From positions 41,364 to 105,363 of IMG/VR virus record IMGVR_UViG_3300045988_039227: DNA of 64,000 nt; one strand, 5' to 3'. The DNA comes from a virus. The notes under the pieces are model-generated. The model was given only the letters and a program-made list of their open reading frames with translations. It was not told the DNA's origin and did not search any database. The first letter of the stretch is position 1. The number at the start of each line of letters is the position of its first letter. This document shows positions 3,001-59,466 of this stretch, piece after piece. The translations under genes were made by a program, and so were the position numbers.

Positions 3001-6000
3001 TTTGCTGCTATTGAATATCTTGTTTAGCAACTGTTTTAGATGCTTGCTGAGCGCTTCCATTTGGATGATTTTGTACAAGCTCTACATTATCTACGTATAC
3101 TGTAGGAGGATCAAGTTTAGCTGCATATGACATTAAATAACCATTGCGCAGCATATAACCAAGACCGGTAGTACCTTTGCCATCATGAGTAAAGTCTTCT
3201 CTTGTAAACGTAAGACCATTTGGAAGTTCTACTTTATCAAGGTTAGGATTTGATGCATATTGCGCATTAAGCTTAGCTAATACACTATTATGTGATGACT
3301 ATATATATTGCTGCATATTCTACTGAACAAATGCAGCATCTTTTGTCATATACATATTACACAGAGCATTGTAGATATTAGCGTAGTCTACACTAGGATT
3401 TTGCGTAGGGTAAATAACATTACCTATTATAACTCTCTTATTAGCCGGATCTAATGTAACAAGACCTTCTATTGAGTTATATTTCTCATTTAATACTTTA
3501 TTGTCAGCCTTAATATAAAGAACCTGCTTAAGTAAATCGTCTATAGAATATCCTTGATACTCATTTAAACCTTGATAACATTTATACCATATAAGGTCTG
3601 CAATCTTATTAGCCTAACCACCTTGACCAGCAGTAAATTTAGGCTGTATTAACGGCGTACCAATACATCTATTATCTACAGCTTTCTCAGTCTGACCAGT
3701 ATCATAGAAGTATACAATATTACCAGATTGTGTTATAGCTGTACGTTTTATATATTCTAGATCAAATCCACTAATTAAAGTTGATAATTCTGGGCCACCA
3801 TATACCATCTTCGTTACGTCACCAGTGTTTACGTTTTGTGTAGCCTTAAGGAAACCTATTCTGTTACCAGCGTCGCATGTAATATTGTACAAATCATGCT
3901 AATTAAGCGTTCCTGCGAACAAGAATTTACTTACAGGCTATAATTCACTACCGTTCTTAATTGAACCCTTAGAACGGCTTAATTTCATGCTTATATGGTA
4001 TCCTGGATGTGTTTTCATAAAGTCGAGCATATACTTAACTTTCTATACAAACACAGCATCTGCAGCTTTCTTTCTAGCAAAATATACCGGATCAACACCC
4101 CTTGGACCAGCGTCATTACCCTGGTCGAATGTCATAAAGATTGTTCTGCCTTTAGAATCTGTAAGCTTAAGCTATACTTCATTATTTCTCCACACAAGCT
4201 CAGCATTACCAGATTTTCCAGAAGCATCTGGGTAAATCAAATGCGGATCAAGCGCTATAGAGAAGTAATGCGGGTCAAGTTTAGCCCTAAATGCAGGGAA
4301 ATGTTTAGTAGTATCACTATACAGCTCTCTCCATTGATCGTCAATCATATTGATACTCTACGCGCTGTTTGTATCAAGTATATCGTCAACATTTGGATCT
4401 ACAGGGAATCTCTGGTTATATTCTCTAATGAAGTCTTCTGCATCATAAATAGTATCAGTAAGCGCATTATCAAGAGCTGTATTTGTTTTCTATACATTCT
4501 TTGTATTATCAGTCAAGAACTTAAGCTAATTATTTATAACCGTACTCCAGAATCTTTGCAAACTCTTGTTGCCAACAAGGCTATTCATAAACTCGCCATC
4601 AAATGTAGCAAGGAATGACTTAATCTTGTTAAAATAAGTAAAGCTAGGATTACCAATATTAGATGAAAATTGAGTCTGCCACATTTGTAAGGCCTTATTT
4701 GCAGCGTCTCCGTACATCATCCTATTGTCTACTAGCTTATTAATAGCTGCTGCTATAAGCTTCTGCTCTGGAAGGGTATCGCCAACTTCAAACTAATCGC
4801 TACCGTAGAATTGGTCAAGAGCTGTCTAGGCATCATATATTGAGTAAATAAGCTCATTAACTTGAGCTCGTTCGTCTGCTGTTGTAATATTAAGGTTTGT
4901 AATAGAACTTAACAGCGTATCAAGTTTCTTGCAGATTTCATGAATAGTATCAAGACCCGCCTAATATTGTTCATCTACAATAACGTGATCAAACGCATCT
5001 TCTGGGTAGAATCCAGGTACAGTATTCTCGTGCTATTTAGGCTACATGAGCTAATTTAAGCGCATCTGAGCGTCTTCTTTTAAGCTCTGGATAGATTCTA
5101 TAGCTGAGTAAAGATCTCTCATCTGAAGTAATAATTCGTCCTTATTTGAGCCTTCTTTAAATATATCGTAAGATGGTACAGTTTTATGTTCGCCACCAGC
5201 TTCAGCAATACTATCGTATATACTTTGCAAATCAGACATAAGATCGTTTACTTTATTCTGCAAAGGTCTGACAACTTCGTTAGAAATATCTTCATTAGAT
5301 TTATTGTAATATGGTGTTACAGGCTTGTTGAAATCAAGCATTTCTACTTTAAATACAGGTTCTGCTACAATTCCACTCGCTGTTCTATCATAGTAGAATG
5401 GCATTACGTATGTGCCTTCAATATTAGAACCAAATGTATCGTAAAGTACCTAATTTAATCTTTGAAGCTATCTCTATTCCTACTGGATCATTGTTTCTTT
5501 AGCTCGACTATTGGACTTCTAATTACCAAGCATTCTGGTTTTTATGTCTGGTTTAAATGAAGATCTAACATCTATAACAAGAAGCTATCCATCATTATCA
5601 ACAAGTACAATATCAGCCTATGATTGTATAGCTCTGCCTTTGTCATCATAGCCATAAATAGGAATGTCTGTATCAAGTACTCTATACTGACCGCCGTTGA
5701 GCATTCTGTCTCTAACAGACTTAACATACTGCTTAGCATCTTCTAGTCCATTCGGATTATCTAACAGCGTGTCGGCAAAACTATCGTCATTTCCTAACAT
5801 TATAGCCTATGCTAGTTCCCTAATAGTTTCTCCATCCCTTATAGACTGAGAATTAAAATAAGCTGTATCTATTGATGCTAAATAATGAGCAAATCCCTAT
5901 AATAATTCCCCTTTATTTGGCTGAGAAAATATTGTGTCAATTATATCAGAATAATCTTGATCTCCGAATCTATCTGTATTATCTGCAAGATATCCAAGTA

Positions 6001-41304: not shown

Positions 41305-43197
41305 TCATTTATTCCACTTTGCTGCATTACGCGCAAAGTTGGCTTTCTTTCTCATAGCTGCACTATACTTACTTGGATTCCTTAAAACTTTATTAGCAAA
41401 ACTTTGGACACTCATACCATGCTATTTAGCTGCTTTAGTAAATGTACCACGCTTAGATGGCTTAATATAGATATCCTTCCCAGAATTATGAAATTGTAAA
41501 AGCTGTGGATATATCTTATTTTCTAATGGTGTTGGAGTTCTACCAAGGCCAATGTTTATTTTATGATCCTAAATATGGAACGGAAGATCGTATTGTATAT
41601 CAAATGGTTCTGCGCCAATATATTTACCAACCTCCAAATTATTAAGATAATTATAAAGATTTGTATTTTTATAATTGAAATTCTGCAAATAATTTCCAAG
41701 TTTTATTCCAGATCTACCAAGCGTTCCTCTTAGCCCGCTATTATTTGTAGCTGTTCTAGTAGCGCCGCCTTTATCTACGATATCTGATAGCTTTATTTTC
41801 TAACTTATTGTCATCCAGTCTTGGTAATCCATTCTGTCAAATAAGCCCTAATTTCTATATCCGATAAAGTCTTTTGATTTTGATTTTAATCTCGTACCAA
41901 ATTTATTTATAGACTTAGTTCTGTGCTCATTAAAGAAATTAGATATCTTTTTATTTATTCTCTATCCAGGCATTAAATCCCAAGTATCGTTTACTTTTAT
42001 AATGCCTTCTATTGGATTTTTATTTAACAATTTAGTTGAAACAGACACATTTCCACCAGCACTAGTAACAAAGTCTTTATCAACGAATGGCGTTCCGGCA
42101 TTAACTACTTCTATATCCCTAGCACCACCACCGTAGCCTTTTCCTTTTAATTGTTTTAAAGCATCTATATTGGTTAATTTCGTTCCATCAGCTGCAGACT
42201 GCGTAAATTGATAGTCTCCAGATTGTGGTAATTTCAAATACTTTCTATACGCATTAGCTCTTGCCTATAAAGCAACATCTCCATCTATATTATATGCTTT
42301 TTCAAATACATTTTTAAGAGCTCTACCAGCAAAATTATCCTAAGCCCAAAATGCTTTATTAATATCTGGAGCACTACCTTTTAAAACATAATACGGCCAC
42401 GCAAGAGTTGGAGTAACAAGTTTTCTTGCTGAATAAGAGGCAGGAGGAAGATAGCTATATAATACAGATCTTGTGAAAGCGTTATTAAATGGATTATGAT
42501 TTTCTTTTGATAATTCCAACAACTCCTTAGTGCTCTAAATTTTATCAGAAAACTTTTCGCCAATTTTAGATCCTATCATTATGTCAAATAACTAATCAGC
42601 AGCTCTTCCTGTTTCTCCGTAACCACCATAAAGACCCTAATTGCTCTCTTCCCATGGCATTCCTGTTCCACGCAAAGTCCCAATCCATTTAGTAGGCGAT
42701 AGAGCTGTCATAGCTTTACCAATCTTACCAATCTTATCGTAATATCCGGATGTATCGTATCCGTTTTGCTCCGCAATCATTGCTGGATATTTTATTGCAG
42801 CTTCTACTGATTTATCAAAACCATGAACAACGCCGTTAGGATCCCAATATGAAGACGTGTTATGTCTACCAGCTGCAGCCCATGGATTAACTTTTGATTT
42901 GTCTCCAACAACCTCAACTTCAGGCAACTATAATCCGGCACTATAAAATGGCTCTCCCGTCTCTTTGTAGTAAAGCATTCCATCTTTAACTACCAACGGA
43001 GCTCCTGTTTCAGACTTTATTCCTTTACCATCTCCAAATTTAGGCAACTTCAACTTCTTTCTAAGCTACTTCTCAGCTATCTACTACTCTGCTTCAGCCT
43101 ATGCTTTTCTTCTGCGCTTAATCTTACGAAAGAGCTTATGACGCTGATAGTCATTCTTCTTCTGCATCTTTCGCTTTGGACTTTCCATCTGTGTCAT
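41305..43197 (-). CDS. hypothetical virion protein (630 aa)
   Basis: Frame 1 was checked codon by codon. ATG at 43197 (TGA at 43204 upstream), about 20 TAG, TGA at 41305..41307 followed by TAA. It joins track ORFs 42637..42927, 42340..42522 and 41962..42237. Confidence 0.7.
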
Positions 43198-57345: not shown

Positions 57346-57903
57346 TTAGGCCTATCCTTCACTTACCTCAGCACCATCTTGTGCCGCCGCTGGCTCTGGT
57401 ACGGACTCAACCTGTTCCTTAAGCTGTGACTGAGTTCCCGTAGCTGCGCTACATTCGTTTTCAGCTCCTGTGCCAGTAGAACCAAATCCACCTTCACCTC
57501 TCTCTGTTGATGAAAGTTCGGAAACTTCTGTGATTGTATACTCTGGTATAGGAACGATGACTAACTGACAGAAGCGCTCACCCTGCTTATAAATAGCAGG
57601 AACAGTATCAGTTGTAGCCTTCATAAATGCTACGATCTCGCCTCTAAAGTCACTGTCGATAACACCGACATTATCAGTAAGCCATAATGACTTCTTCCAA
57701 ATACTAGAGCGTGGTATAAGTAAACCAACATATCCGGCAGGAACCTCAACTGCCAATCCTGTATGGTAAACCAACATTAGCTGATTTGCTTCATTAAGAG
57801 CTGTTTCAATCTTAGTACAAGTCAAATCAATTCCTGCAGCACCTTTTGTGCCACGAATAGGGAGGATAGCGTTATCCTCAAGTCTCTTAAATTTTAACTC
57901 CAT
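57346..57903 (-). CDS. dut: dUTP diphosphatase (dUTPase) with acidic C-terminal extension
   Basis: All five dUTPase motifs are visible: AGIDL, IPRSS, GVIDSDFRGEI, RFCQLV and RGEGGFGSTG. There is no internal TAG. The ORF reaches TAG at 57352, then GCC, then TAA at 57346..57348, giving 183 aa to the TAG or 185 aa to the TAA. Confidence 0.9.
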
Positions 57904-57927
57904 AGTATTCTTTAATATTTATTATTG

Positions 57928-57999
57928 TTACCCCACCAGGATTCGAACCCAGACTAAGAGGGTTAGAGCCTCCTGTGCTAGCCGTTACACCATAGGGCA
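57928..57999 (-). tRNA. amber suppressor tRNA, anticodon CUA (probably Gln-accepting)
   Basis: A hand-folded 72-nt cloverleaf on the minus strand. Acceptor TGCCCTA/TGGGGTA; D arm GTGT-AACGGCTA-GCAC; anticodon arm GGAGG-CTCTAAC-CCTCT (U33, CUA, A37); variable TAGT; T arm CTGGG-TTCGAAT-CCTGG; discriminator A. U1:A72 and the GGUGUAACGGCUAGCAC D arm resemble Gln/Glu-type tRNAs (from memory). Confidence 0.85.
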
Positions 58000-58104
58000 A
58001 TATTGTAGAAGCTCACCTTAGGCTATCGAGCTTTTTATGTGCCTAAAACTACTTTGTTGCGAAGACTCGATTCGAACGAGTGACCTCAAGGTTATGGATT
58101 AAGA

Positions 58105-58178
58105 TGCGGAAGTAGGATTCGAACCTACGTAGAACAGCTTATGAGACTGTGCTGGAACCACCTCCAGTCTATTCCGCG
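58105..58178 (-). tRNA. tRNA-like element with CAU anticodon loop, non-canonical D region
   Basis: On the minus strand: CGCGGAA-TAGA-CTGG-AGGTGGTT-CCAG-C-ACAGT-CTCATAA-GCTGT-TCTAC-GTAGG-TTCGAAT-CCTAC-TTCCGCA. The T arm, anticodon arm and acceptor are good (again with C1*A72). Two extra nucleotides lie between the acceptor and D stems. It overlaps the 3' end of the endonuclease ORF. Confidence 0.5.
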
Positions 58179-58594
58179 ATGTTAATCTTATTTAAAATGG
58201 AATCAAGCTTATAATCACTTGCCAAGTTTATATTGTAATAACAATCACTTGGATAATCTAGTCTAAATGTCATGCTGTTTACGACATCGCCAGTTACAGG
58301 AACCATGTACACAACACCGTTTACGATTGTTGCTATAAAATCAACTTGATCTTTTGTATAAGTTTTTGATACGGATCCATTAGCACTCGATCGCTTATTT
58401 TTAAACGGAATTGTAAATCGCTTTGCGTCTAGCATGTGTGCCGTTTTTATTTGGATTCTATATCGTTTATTTTTAAAATCGAATATACAATCATATCTAG
58501 CATTGTTCCCGTAGGGAATACTAACTATTCCGTATTTCATTAATTCAGCAATAACAAGTAATTCTGTTATACTTCCGTTCTGTTTATAATCCAT
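58139..58594 (-). CDS. PD-(D/E)XK homing-endonuclease-like protein (141 aa to TAG at 58169; 151 aa to TAA at 58139)
   Basis: Track ORF 58169..58594. The pattern GSITELLVIAELMKYGIVSIPYGNNARYDCIFDFKNKRYRIQIKT ... VDFIATIV...VYMVP matches my memory of the group-I-intron-associated PD-(D/E)XK endonuclease family (the I-Ssp6803I type), with D..(Q)IK in the catalytic position. There is no internal TAG. Confidence 0.6.
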
Positions 58595-58656
58595 ATTTAA
58601 TCATTTTTAATGAGCCTTGCGAGCTACCAACTGCTCCACTTCGCGATAAATTATTG

Positions 58657-58738
58657 ACCCGTCACATCGAATCGAACGACGGCCTACTGTGGGCTTAGGA
58701 TCCTTACCACAGGGGTGCTACCACTACACCATGACGAG
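58657..58738 (-). tRNA. tRNA-like gene with expanded 14-nt anticodon loop
   Basis: 82 nt on the minus strand. Acceptor CTCGTCA/TGACGGG; D arm GTGT-AGTGGTA-GCAC; T arm CGTCG-TTCGATT-CGATG. The anticodon arm is a 6-bp stem CTGTGG/CCACAG closing the loop TAAGGATCCTAAGC, and no standard U33-anticodon-R37 reading is possible. Confidence 0.45.
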
Positions 58739-59058
58739 ATAAGCACGTAACCTTTAGCTGGAGTTACGTAGAACCAGTATTGGCGCCATTTGGATCCTGC
58801 AGCTCCGAGCGCTGCTAGGGCAGAAAGATTTTCTTTCACCCGGATGTCCCAGTTTATAGAGATTTCAGAAATGGCGGAAACCTCTCGGCGAACTGTATAT
58901 TCGCCCGTTTTCTTTGACTCTTATAAGTTTTAGCTGGACTTATAACCAGTATTGGGTCCATGTGTCAGCTTACCATGGTAGCTTTTTATTTATAGTGTAC
59001 GCACATGGACGCCACTTTATAGATAAACTAAATTTAATAATCTAAAAAATTATGAGTG
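58739..59058 (-). ncRNA. ~320-nt ORF-free structured RNA candidate with two tandem pseudoknot modules
   Basis: No ORF on either strand, and GC-richer than the flanks. Multiple perfect hairpins on the minus strand: GTCCATGTG...CACATGGAC, GGCGAA-TATACAG-TTCGCC, AGAGGTTTC...GAAATCTCT and GCAGC-GCTCGGA-GCTGC. Two copies of CCAATACTGGTT-N-CCAGCTAAA lie at 58920..58956 and 58743..58784. In each copy the hairpin loop pairs with the sequence just downstream (TTATAAGT/ACTTATAA and ACGTAAC/GTTACGT). Confidence 0.55.
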
Positions 59059-59132
59059 GAGTCTATGCAGGAGTCGAACCTGCTAACTATTCCCTTTGTA
59101 TCGGGTCGTCTTTACCGTTTGACTAATAGACT
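59059..59132 (-). tRNA. tRNA-like gene with weak anticodon stem and 8-nt loop
   Basis: On the minus strand: perfect acceptor AGTCTAT/ATAGACT, D arm GTC-AAACGGTAAA-GAC, T arm GCAGG-TTCGACT-CCTGC. The anticodon arm has only CCC/GGG pairing around GATACAAA. Confidence 0.45.
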
Positions 59133-59142
59133 CTAAAGGTGA

Positions 59143-59466
59143 TTACTTAGTACGAGTAATCCAATTCCATAATCGTTTGTACCAAGGTTTCTTGACCTTC
59201 TCTTCTGCTGGTACAGCTGTGCATCTTCTGTAAACCCCACCATCCTTTATTATGGCTGAGAGATTCTCTGGCAAAAGCTCGTCGAGCAAATAATCTGTAA
59301 AGATTGATATGATTGTATCGTAATCACAATCAGTTATCTTCATACCAAGAGAAATCTTCTTGCCAATGAAATATGCTGTAACATCGTTTGCGTTAGCAAT
59401 GTCAAGCATAGAGATTACATACTTAGGTCTTTTTACCTTAACTGTCTTTTTAATAGCTTTCTTCAT
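59143..59466 (-). CDS. hypothetical protein (107 aa)
   Basis: Intact TAG-free track ORF ending at TAA. Confidence 0.6.
   Translation of the reverse strand: MKKAIKKTVKVKRPKYVISMLDIANANDVTAYFIGKKISLGMKITDCDYDTIISIFTDYLLDELLPENLSAIIKDGGVYRRCTAVPAEEKVKKPWYKRLWNWITRTK

Follow-up and report, generated by a model that had tools for sequence, protein, structure and literature searches.

We analysed a window of 64,000 nucleotides (nt) from a crAss-like phage of the Burzaovirus group (Suoliviridae, Oafivirinae; IMG/VR record IMGVR_UViG_3300045988_039227, positions 41,364–105,363), and found that a non-coding stretch of about 320 nt (58739–59058) encodes an elaborate RNA element. The element consists of two homologous RNA modules on the minus strand (59017..58739), linked by a hairpin. 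Each module is made of two consecutive classical H-type pseudoknots, PK1 and PK2, with an invariant AAUAC junction between them. It stands at the head of an array of transfer RNA (tRNA) genes, its last nucleotide directly precedes base +1 of a tRNA-like gene, and the phage depends on a suppressor tRNA encoded further down the array. We regard the element as a real, well-supported and apparently undescribed RNA family, in which known parts (classical H-type pseudoknots) and a known neighbourhood (ornate RNAs beside phage tRNA genes) are combined with a new modular architecture.

The repeated unit is ~91–147 nt long. From 5′ to 3′, its first half comprises the 5′ strand of helix E, the 5′ strand of helix A (within the loop of hairpin E), the 3′ strand of E ending in CU, the A-rich segment AUAAA(U/C)AAAA and an optional insert B. 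The second half comprises the 3′ strand of A, the junction (C)CAAUA, the 5′ strand of helix C (CUGG), the 5′ strand of helix D, the 3′ strand of C (CCAG), CUAAA, the 3′ strand of D and a NUUAU tail. Helices E and A form PK1, whose crossing loop is the conserved A-rich segment, tolerant of inserted hairpins; PK2 combines a helix C of 4 base pairs (bp) and a loop-to-3′ helix D of 6–9 bp with a short crossing loop. All helix coordinates in the window were verified (Table 1). The smallest natural module, of 91 nt, lacks hairpin B altogether (L005:3359-3449), and module 2 of the window has a 60-nt branched insert in its place. The loop of the linking hairpin H is variable, and many genomes have an expanded version of about 40 nt. 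In modules of the short type, each of the eight nucleotides in the hairpin E loop can pair with the 3′ strand of A, yet the closing pair of E covaries too; because this closing pair and a full helix A cannot coexist, the pairs at the helix ends must either fray or take turns. At its apex, hairpin B (window 58971–58978, minus strand, and homologs) is fully self-complementary in three independent variants, CCAUGG, CCGCGG and AUGUAUAUACAU (UAUA), and may be a kissing-dimer site or simply a palindrome.

Table 1. Parts of the pseudoknot element and neighbouring features in the window.
Feature	Position	Strand	Evidence or remark
Conserved 107-amino-acid gene	59466-59143	(-)	
Upstream tRNA-like gene	59132-59059	(-)	Rfam tRNA 38.3 bits; no ARAGORN call
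AT-rich, poorly conserved spacer (~41 nt), outside the structured element	59018..59058	(-)	Alignment and upstream sequences
Module 1 (short type: PK1 + AAUAC + PK2)	58915..59017	(-)	R1 117.6 bits, E 4e-24, full model
Module 1 helix E 5′ strand AGUGGCG, partner CGU(A)CACU at 59001-58994	59010..59016	(-)	RNAalifold on unfitted MAFFT alignment
Module 1 helix A 5′ strand UCCAUGUG in hairpin E loop; partner CACAUGGA at 58964-58957, forming PK1	59002..59009	(-)	7/7 pairs change on both sides
Module 1 A-rich loop AUAAAUAAAA (PK1 loop 3)	58984..58993	(-)	Columns (nearly) invariant, alignments A2 to A5
Module 1 optional hairpin B AGCUACCAUGGUAAGCU in PK1 loop 3	58967..58983	(-)	4/5 pairs covary
Module 1 junction CCCAAUA; invariant AAUAC continues into helix C	58950..58956	(-)	AAUAC kept in all homologs including distant lineages
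Module 1 PK2: CUGG-UUAUAAGU-CCAG-CUAAA-ACUUAUAA	58921..58949	(-)	Helix C 100%, helix D 98% paired; D covaries
Linker GAGUCAAAGAAAACG and hairpin H (GGCGAA-UAUACAG-UUCGCC, 58905-58887)	58887..58920	(-)	Linker conserved
Module 2 (long type: branched-insert PK1 + AAUAC + PK2 + CUUAU tail)	58739..58885	(-)	R1 57.7 bits, E ~1e-10 to ~2e-10, model positions 1-107
Module 2 hairpin E (AGAGGUUU/AAAUCUCU), loop bearing helix A 5′ strand CGCCAUUU (58876-58869)	58858..58885	(-)	Coordinates checked
Module 2 branched insert, three sub-helices, PK1 loop 3	58792..58851	(-)	Compensatory changes seen by eye
Module 2 helix A 3′ strand AAAUGGCG	58784..58791	(-)	R1 aligns it to module 1 helix A 3′ strand
Module 2 junction CCAAUA and PK2: CUGG-UUC-UACGUAACU-CCAG-CUAAA-GGUUACGUG	58744..58783	(-)	Helix D 9 bp
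Tail CUUAU (consensus NUUAU)	58739..58743	(-)	Next base, 58738, starts a tRNA-like gene
Second odd tRNA-like gene	58738-~58655	(-)	Directly 3′ of the element
tRNA, anticodon CUA (ARAGORN 'tRNA-Pyl (cta)')	57999-57928 (ARAGORN span 57927-57999)	(-)	Annotated tRNA-Gln in cr7_1

For comparison we used phages cr7_1 and cr124_1, IMG/VR contigs and gut-metagenome contigs; in the element region the window is 88% identical to cr7_1 and 87% to cr124_1. A covariance model, R1, built from 19 short-type modules and one minimal module (20 in total, none of the long type), detected both modules of the window, which shows that one design is present twice in the 320 nt, as homologous halves. The copies differ in sequence, with complementarity kept inside each, in helix E (AGUGGCG/CGU-A-CACU versus AGAGGUUU/AAAUCUCU), helix A (UCCAUGUG/CACAUGGA versus CGCCAUUU/AAAUGGCG) and helix D (UUAUAAGU/ACUUAUAA versus UACGUAACU/GGUUACGUG), and long-type modules carry GC and UA pairs at helix A positions where the short type has other pairs. 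Among homologs of module 2, variants of helix A keep their pairing, CGUCGUUU with AAAUGGCG via G-U and GCUCACC/GGUGAGC by a swap of both strands, while helix D changes from UACG/CGUG to UGCG/CGCG and from G-U to A-U. In the branched insert, compensatory changes noted by eye, with no formal count, are CAGC/GCUG to UAGC/GCUA and GGGU..GCCC to GGGC..GCCC.

All motifs quoted in an earlier, sequence-only reading of this stretch were found on the minus strand where that reading had placed them: CCAAUACUGGUU at 58955–58944 and 58783–58772, CCAGCUAAA at 58937–58929 and 58761–58753, UUAUAAGU/ACUUAUAA at 58945–58938 and 58928–58921, ACGUAAC/GUUACGU at 58769–58763 and 58751–58745, AAGUGGCG at 59017–59010, AAAUGGCG at 58791–58784 and CGCCAUUU at 58876–58869. 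Its proposal of H-type pseudoknots supported by covariation holds both between the copies and across about 100 related phage genomes. It was right that there are two repeated modules, but their size had been put at ~40 nt, whereas the unit is the longer one described above with two pseudoknots each. It had also treated two AA(A/G)UGGCG strings as equivalent; one of them, AAAUGGCG, is the 3′ strand of helix A in module 2, with CGCCAUUU as its partner, and in module 1 AGUGGCG supplies the 5′ side of a hairpin formed locally. The idea that both strings pair with CGCCAUUU in alternative conformers is not supported either: pairing of AAGUGGCG with CGCCAUUU is possible on paper, but genomes with a single module have AGUGGC without CGCCAUUU, and the local hairpin partner covaries.

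We then evaluated the helices quantitatively. In an alignment that was fitted to the model for helices A, B and D and thereby favours these (helices E and C lie outside the model), standard pairing was found in 91.3% of the cells over 36 distinct sequences, as against 80.5% in column shuffles, none of 500 of which reached the observed value. When the 3′ partners were slid by 1–3 columns, only 29–43% of the cells paired. Double-sided changes occurred at 20 pairs (8.8 expected), and all seven counted pairs of helix A covary. On the MAFFT alignment, which had not been fitted to the model, RNAalifold arrived independently at the 7-bp form of helix E and at part of D. The innermost pair of helix E (alignment columns 8 and 20) is AU in 14 cases, GC in 5, CG in 2 and UA in 1, and the double change AGUG/CACU to AGCG/CGCU appears in two backgrounds, L028 and L217. 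A CCA/UGG mini-hairpin also drawn by RNAalifold is disfavoured, as the double change to CUAG/CUAG agrees with helix C but not with the mini-hairpin. Nor does the CCA before AAUAC mimic an acceptor end: it varies (CUA, UCA, ACA, CAA, UGA) while AAUAC does not, and we therefore rejected this idea.

Many G-U pairs are valid only on the minus strand, from which the tRNAs are also read; the functional molecule is thus a single strand with the polarity of the tRNAs. Compared with shuffles, folding is better for the minus strand (z = -3.72, none of 100 shuffles being as good) and less markedly so for the plus strand (z = -2.14). The repeat CCAAUACUGGUU occurs exactly twice in the 64 kb, where 0.21 copies are expected with one mismatch or fewer. 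As for coding, the sequence-only reading had stated that neither strand has an open reading frame (ORF). ORFs of 35–51 amino acids (aa) do overlap the region, and the plus strand has one stop-free frame of 100 codons when TAG is read as sense; what stands is that none shows conservation as a coding sequence. In most homologs the ORFs of the minus strand have no start codon any more or run into early stops, the plus-strand frame has no third-position bias (variable sites 40/37/39, 27/33/31 and 21/22/21 over the codon positions), and element lengths differ among genomes by non-multiples of three. The overlapping ORFs are thus not genes; neither strand carries a coding signature, and the small conserved frame that would have offered another explanation of the conservation was looked for on both strands and not found. 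Compensatory changes exceed both the shuffled and the slid controls, and the element is a structured non-coding RNA of the minus strand, as had been proposed. The accompanying claim of a raised GC content is correct in direction, but the rise is only slight (0.41, compared with 0.367 for the window).

The suggestion of a new RNA class is a fair description, since no Rfam family matched: a search of the whole window at the gathering threshold, and searches at E ≤ 10 of stretches of 1.6 kb, 288 nt and 106 nt, returned tRNAs and chance-level matches only. ARAGORN called two tRNAs and no transfer-messenger RNA (tmRNA) in the window. In the literature searched we found no paper tying crAss-like phages to such a pseudoknot RNA; of the 408 supplementary files of the structured-RNA catalogue PMC8040213, the first 200 contained no match. 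Some strings of the element had been likened to group I introns. No match to Intron_gpI or its subgroups was obtained at threshold or at E ≤ 10 (57800–59400 and 58735–59022), no exons were found, and whole modules are lost or gained before intact tRNAs; the element lies between complete tRNA or tRNA-like genes, and its flanks are intact with 0, 1, 2 or 3 modules. A role as the ribozyme partner of the neighbouring split tRNA can likewise be set aside: the element precedes intact tRNAs in most genomes, cr7_1, cr124_1 and many metagenome genomes have no split tRNA at all, and the split tRNA of the window has its halves in order around an insert with its own endonuclease.

Homologs, with compensatory changes, were found, and the number of modules per related crAss-like phage ranges from 0 to 3. 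The close relative L125 has none, its tRNAs lying back to back; cr124_1, L028 and L064 have one, the window and cr7_1 two, and L016 and several metagenome contigs three. Compared with the window, cr124_1 (L002) has a deletion exactly between the two CCAAUACUGGUU repeats (window 58783–58955), and its single module is a hybrid in which PK1 of module 1 is fused to PK2 of module 2, with the breakpoint inside CCAAUACUGGUU. This is direct evidence that modules recombine. A metagenome scan yielded 119 contigs, many of them phage genomes of ~100–106 kb; those with a stated source came from the human gut. A scan of one genome per bacterial species gave chance matches only, apart from one crAss-type contig binned with Segatella copri. 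This crAss-size contig (L141, JAJXAL010000002.1, 101 kb), in a metagenome-assembled genome of S. copri, is a weak hint at the host.

Several candidate loci were discarded. Most non-crAss matches to the GTACRCTATAAAYAAAA pattern in IMG/VR are chance occurrences in coding DNA, and the matches at L007, L023 and L027 from the first scan are chance matches too; L085, L088, L090, L096 and L107 (R1 E ~0.7, no D pairing) were treated as chance. In some genomes an extra conserved non-coding element of ~175 nt lies between the upstream tRNA-like gene and the first module (L014 ~4277–4460, minus strand; also L016, L022, L026, L030 and about 10 metagenome contigs). It reads ...GACCAGUUUGCUGG...GGUAUUGCACCAGAUGCC...GGGGUAAGAUACCAUG, had no Rfam match, and in a single-sequence fold was no better than its shuffles (z = -1.0). 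The largest arrays, counted together with an additional element (element X), reach ~560 nt.

More distant loci were fetched via the neighbouring 107-aa protein, down to an identity of about 25–30%. They contain diverged modules that R1 misses, of the form AGUCGG-...GCCUU...-CCGACU-AUAACAAAG-AGGC-CCAAUA-C5′-D5′-C3′-L3-D3′. Their D helices are new, and their helix C is CAGC/GCUG, CAGU/ACUG or CAGG/CCUG, so that five complementary types occur family-wide (with CUGG/CCAG and CUAG/CUAG). A PK2 scanner gave 8 forward matches in 12 distant loci, of which 7 lie downstream of the conserved gene by no more than ~400 nt; at its background of 0.03 per kb, about 1.2 were expected. Invariant throughout the family are the AAUAC junction and the CU-AUAA after helix E. 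Distant lineages also have another leader before the CUA tRNA, a 6–8-bp stem around ...UUUAGAC... and a hairpin N5-AGCGUUA-N5 (or GAUCGUU), which lies within 1–2 nt of the suppressor tRNA in L296, L298, L301, L302, L304 and L306 (about 50 nt before the CUA tRNA). L302 and L296 have, in addition, a related knot, CAGCC-AAUACAGGGG-A-GGCUG...CCCCUGU. That distant lineages have unrelated-looking structured leaders at their CUA tRNA suggests that a structured leader is generally required at this position.

The order of features on the minus strand is the 107-aa gene, a tRNA-like gene, the spacer, the element, a second tRNA-like gene, a split tRNA-fMet, the CUA tRNA and a dUTPase gene. Stop-free frames of at least 150 codons add up to 5,892 aa under code 11 and to 22,183 aa with TAG as sense; the longest is 3,529 aa. 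The phage is TAG-recoded, and the CUA tRNA is therefore an essential amber suppressor. In the upstream tRNA-like gene, a 3-bp anticodon stem carries a loop of 8 nt, GAUACAAA. The gene is nearly invariant among relatives, including those without the pseudoknot element, and its homolog in L297 was called tRNA-Cys(ACA). The second tRNA-like gene has normal acceptor, D and T arms, a 6-bp anticodon stem and a 13–14-nt loop with a GGAUCC palindrome; changes in its T-stem and acceptor in L016 are compensatory, which indicates that its fold is maintained.

The two halves of the split tRNA-fMet are in order and on the same strand, flanking an endonuclease-encoding insert (window 58050–58650, minus strand). 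The tRNA is an initiator-type tRNA-Met (C1xA72 mismatch), interrupted after the CAU of the anticodon loop by ~545 nt that encode a PD-(D/E)XK endonuclease of the I-Ssp6803I family (PF11645; ORF 58169–58594, minus strand, E 5e-19) and also hold a second complete tRNA-Met-like gene (58178–58104). The insert matched no group I intron model, and its end is not G. A similar insert, with AUGAUUAA(A/U)U near the start in common, splits the CUA suppressor tRNA in distant crAss-like contigs (L307, L310, L313 and L315). At L121, L123 and many metagenome loci, ARAGORN called tRNAs with 4-base (taaa, tgaa, acac, aagg) or 2-base (aa, ca, ac) anticodons; these sit 8–11 nt after the first tRNA of the array and may be quadruplet-type or non-canonical tRNAs.

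The element always has the orientation of the tRNAs and always occupies the interval bounded by the 107-aa gene (with its tRNA-like gene) on one side and the dUTPase gene on the other. At ~70 of 101 terminal modules, an ARAGORN-called tRNA follows NUUAU with a gap of 0 nt (-1 in one case), whereas the subsequent tRNAs of the array are spaced by 5–11 nt. The abutted tRNAs are of Met-CAU types, the CUA suppressor and, once, Ile-UAU; most of the remaining terminal modules adjoin tRNA-like or split tRNA genes. Thus, ~70 of 101 loci have the make-up of a pre-tRNA leader for RNase P, co-oriented, contiguous with base +1 and single-stranded from -1 to -4. At L019, L012, L022, L029 and other loci a hairpin of ~40 nt, (C/A)UCUAAUGGGGCGCAGGUGGUAAUACCCUAUUAGA, follows the last module, with a tRNA-Met ~120 nt further on. 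Among transcription signals, the only terminator-like site within the element is on the opposite strand, and the Bacteroides-type TAnnTTTG motif was present in just 6 of 77 distinct upstream regions.

From this arrangement we tentatively favour a reading in which the tRNA operon begins with the element as its structured 5′ leader, active in cis on the pre-tRNA until RNase P removes it. The leader would be co-transcribed with the tRNAs, and the cut of host RNase P at the tRNA 5′ end would free it. A U at -1 is a preferred context for RNase P, and NUUAU fits it. Before the cut, the pseudoknots could prevent mispairing between leader and tRNA in cis, protect the 5′ end from nucleases, and/or set the efficiency or timing with which the tRNA array, the suppressor included, matures. 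Such a role would be analogous to that of the pseudoknot domain ahead of the tRNA-like structure in plant viruses.

A number of observations weigh against a leader of this kind. The element is dispensable, as the leaderless L125 shows, and its copies range from 0 to 3; it is not obvious why a leader that serves tRNA maturation in cis alone should have its modules duplicated. That AAUAC and CU-AUAA, though unpaired, are so strictly conserved hints that they take part in specific recognition or chemistry over and above a passive structural role. About 12 loci have a small hairpin and not a tRNA after the last module, and in distant lineages PK2 can sit 100–150 nt from the tRNA. Sigma-70-type promoter-like sites are no commoner than in shuffles, with no consistent promoter motif upstream. 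The phage itself is uncultured, and no cultured phage in the phage collection has a close or a distant form of the element.

Variable copies, dispensability and conserved unpaired motifs fit somewhat better with a trans-acting stable RNA than with a passive role in cis. In this main alternative, possible if rather unlikely in our estimation, the tRNAs would be processing signals for such an RNA: RNase P would release its 3′ side, and maturation of the upstream tRNA-like gene at the 3′ end would release its 5′ side; the product could be a decoy or sponge for host defence or an RNA-binding protein, or a self-assembling scaffold like GOLLD and ROOL. Tandem duplication and 0–3 copies are as for a dosage-dependent accessory or anti-defence function, the unpaired motifs are strictly conserved, tRNA-shaped genes occupy both flanks, and the self-complementary loops of hairpin B (CCAUGG, CCGCGG, UAUA) would permit kissing dimers. 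However, single substitutions often break these palindromes, hairpin B is missing from minimal and long modules, and no protein gene was seen to co-vary with the element, although this was not examined genome-wide.

It is doubtful, yet conceivable, that the leader is an active device: a new class of self-cleaving or RNase-P-gating RNA that would time the maturation of the suppressor and the rest of the array, or a released pseudoknot RNA that would neutralise a host defence directed at tRNAs. In the first case, the element would belong to whatever triggers the phage's change from the standard code to the TAG-recoded one during infection.

The position at the head of an untranslated operon, together with the conserved unpaired motifs and compact folds, also invites comparison with processive antitermination or polymerase-modifying leaders such as HK022 put or EAR, which would sustain transcription of the tRNA operon. 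We consider this improbable: the array is short and highly structured, no terminators to be read through were found, another element of ~175 nt comes first in some genomes, and Rfam revealed no similarity to put or EAR.

To a new self-cleaving ribozyme, which would make the tRNA 5′ end or separate the modules as a 5′-side counterpart of the theta ribozymes, we give still less credence. A module end exactly at base +1, invariant unpaired nucleotides beside the pseudoknots, and the precedent of tRNA-adjacent ribozymes in recoded gut phages (PMC10879173) are compatible with it, but no Rfam ribozyme matched even at E ≤ 10, RNase P already accounts for the junction, and PK2 is not beside the tRNA in distant homologs. 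The helix order, E5′-A5′-E3′-(B)-A3′ and then C5′-D5′-C3′-D3′, describes two consecutive knots that are not nested, and the element is therefore not like the hepatitis delta virus (HDV) ribozyme.

A ligand-sensing knot that gates tRNA maturation, for instance one related to the preQ1-I riboswitch (whose aptamer has a similar 'stem - CUCUAUAAAAAAC' tail), is very unlikely. To the eye, there is a likeness between PK1 of the minimal module (AGAGGU...CCUCUAUAAAAUAACUA) and the preQ1-I aptamer of B. subtilis, and the H-type topology with an A-rich tail is shared, but Rfam preQ1 models did not match, loop lengths differ, the 5 nt before the tRNA leave no expression platform, and the element is never beside a biosynthetic or transport gene. 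Finally, a group I intron remnant or split-tRNA partner, or conservation at the level of DNA (a recombination or homing site) or of an antisense small protein, is largely refuted and hardly credible, because, despite the PF11645 homing-endonuclease gene and split tRNA 100 nt downstream, the recombination of PK2 repeats evident from the cr124_1 deletion and the long plus-strand frame free of TAA and TGA, no intron model matched, the element occurs in genomes without a split tRNA, crossing compensatory helices and strand-specific G-U pairs are unexplained by a DNA-level function, variable sites are even over the codon positions and lengths are out of phase with three.

crAss-like phages are among the most abundant viruses of the human gut. 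For the present lineage, in which TAG stands for an amino acid, the analysis defines a conserved RNA, its structure backed by evolution, at the head of the operon that encodes the suppressor, and provides exact helices, a minimal version of 91 nt, natural copy-number variants and diverged homologs. Interest in the element would be high if it gates the maturation of the suppressor tRNA or proves catalytic.

Among known systems, the upstream pseudoknot domains (UPDs) of plant viruses such as tobacco mosaic virus and soil-borne wheat mosaic virus (SBWMV) are like the element in having tandem small H-type pseudoknots directly 5′ of a tRNA-shaped structure, and one stem-plus-tail of the element is identical in sequence to an SBWMV model (AGAG...CUCUAUAAAC). 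SBWMV2_UPD-PKl scored 16.5 bits against a threshold of 39 (E 9), and SBWMV1_UPD-PKh 16.1 bits against 32 (E 1.6), the latter on a neighbouring element in L014. As these matches, the only resemblances that Rfam offered, are far below threshold, the likeness is one of analogy or convergence, with no evidence of homology. The UPD acts in eukaryotic translation and replication, whereas the downstream partner of the element is a real, processed tRNA in a DNA phage.

The preQ1-I and SAM-II aptamers share with the element a compact H-type pseudoknot whose A-rich third loop runs along stem 1, but the element differs in loop lengths and has no model match, expression platform or metabolic gene context: RF00522 (preQ1-I) gave no match at E ≤ 10 even when only 106–288 nt were searched, and what follows the element after 5 nt is a tRNA, not a queuosine-related gene in whose 5′ untranslated region it would sit. 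The tmRNA is likewise a pseudoknot-rich RNA co-encoded with tRNA-like units; the element has no tag reading frame, no acceptor/T-arm domain and no Rfam tmRNA match. The 'species 1/2' stable RNAs of phage T4, which are encoded and processed with its tRNA cluster, are comparable in this respect. Type III antitoxins of the ToxI kind also form tandem pseudoknot units whose copy number varies among phages. Their repeats are identical and are paired with a ToxN-type toxin gene, whereas the copies of the element differ in their helices while keeping the fold, with no adjacent toxin gene.

Closer in setting are the theta (minimal HDV-like) ribozymes, which adjoin tRNAs, often suppressors, in TAG-reassigning phages of the human gut (PMC10879173). 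Like them, the element is a small pseudoknotted RNA abutting tRNAs in recoded gut phages. Theta ribozymes have a nested double pseudoknot (P1, P1.1, P2–P4) with a catalytic C and cleave at the tRNA 3′ end; by definition the cleavage site is within ±5 nt of the tRNA and the ribozyme lies downstream of it (PMC10879173). The element instead lies upstream of the tRNA that it abuts, is separated from the upstream tRNA-like gene by ~41 nt of unconserved spacer, and matched no HDV family in Rfam. GOLLD and ROOL, to which the sequence-only reading had compared the element, did not match by their Rfam covariance models, and the comparison holds for the context only, as they too are conserved, elaborate non-coding RNAs beside tRNA genes of phages and prophages. 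They form a single non-repetitive fold of ~580–800 nt, whereas the present element is assembled from modules of 91–147 nt, varies in copy number and belongs to a different phage group. With it, the few ornate RNAs known from the neighbourhood of phage tRNA genes gain a new family.

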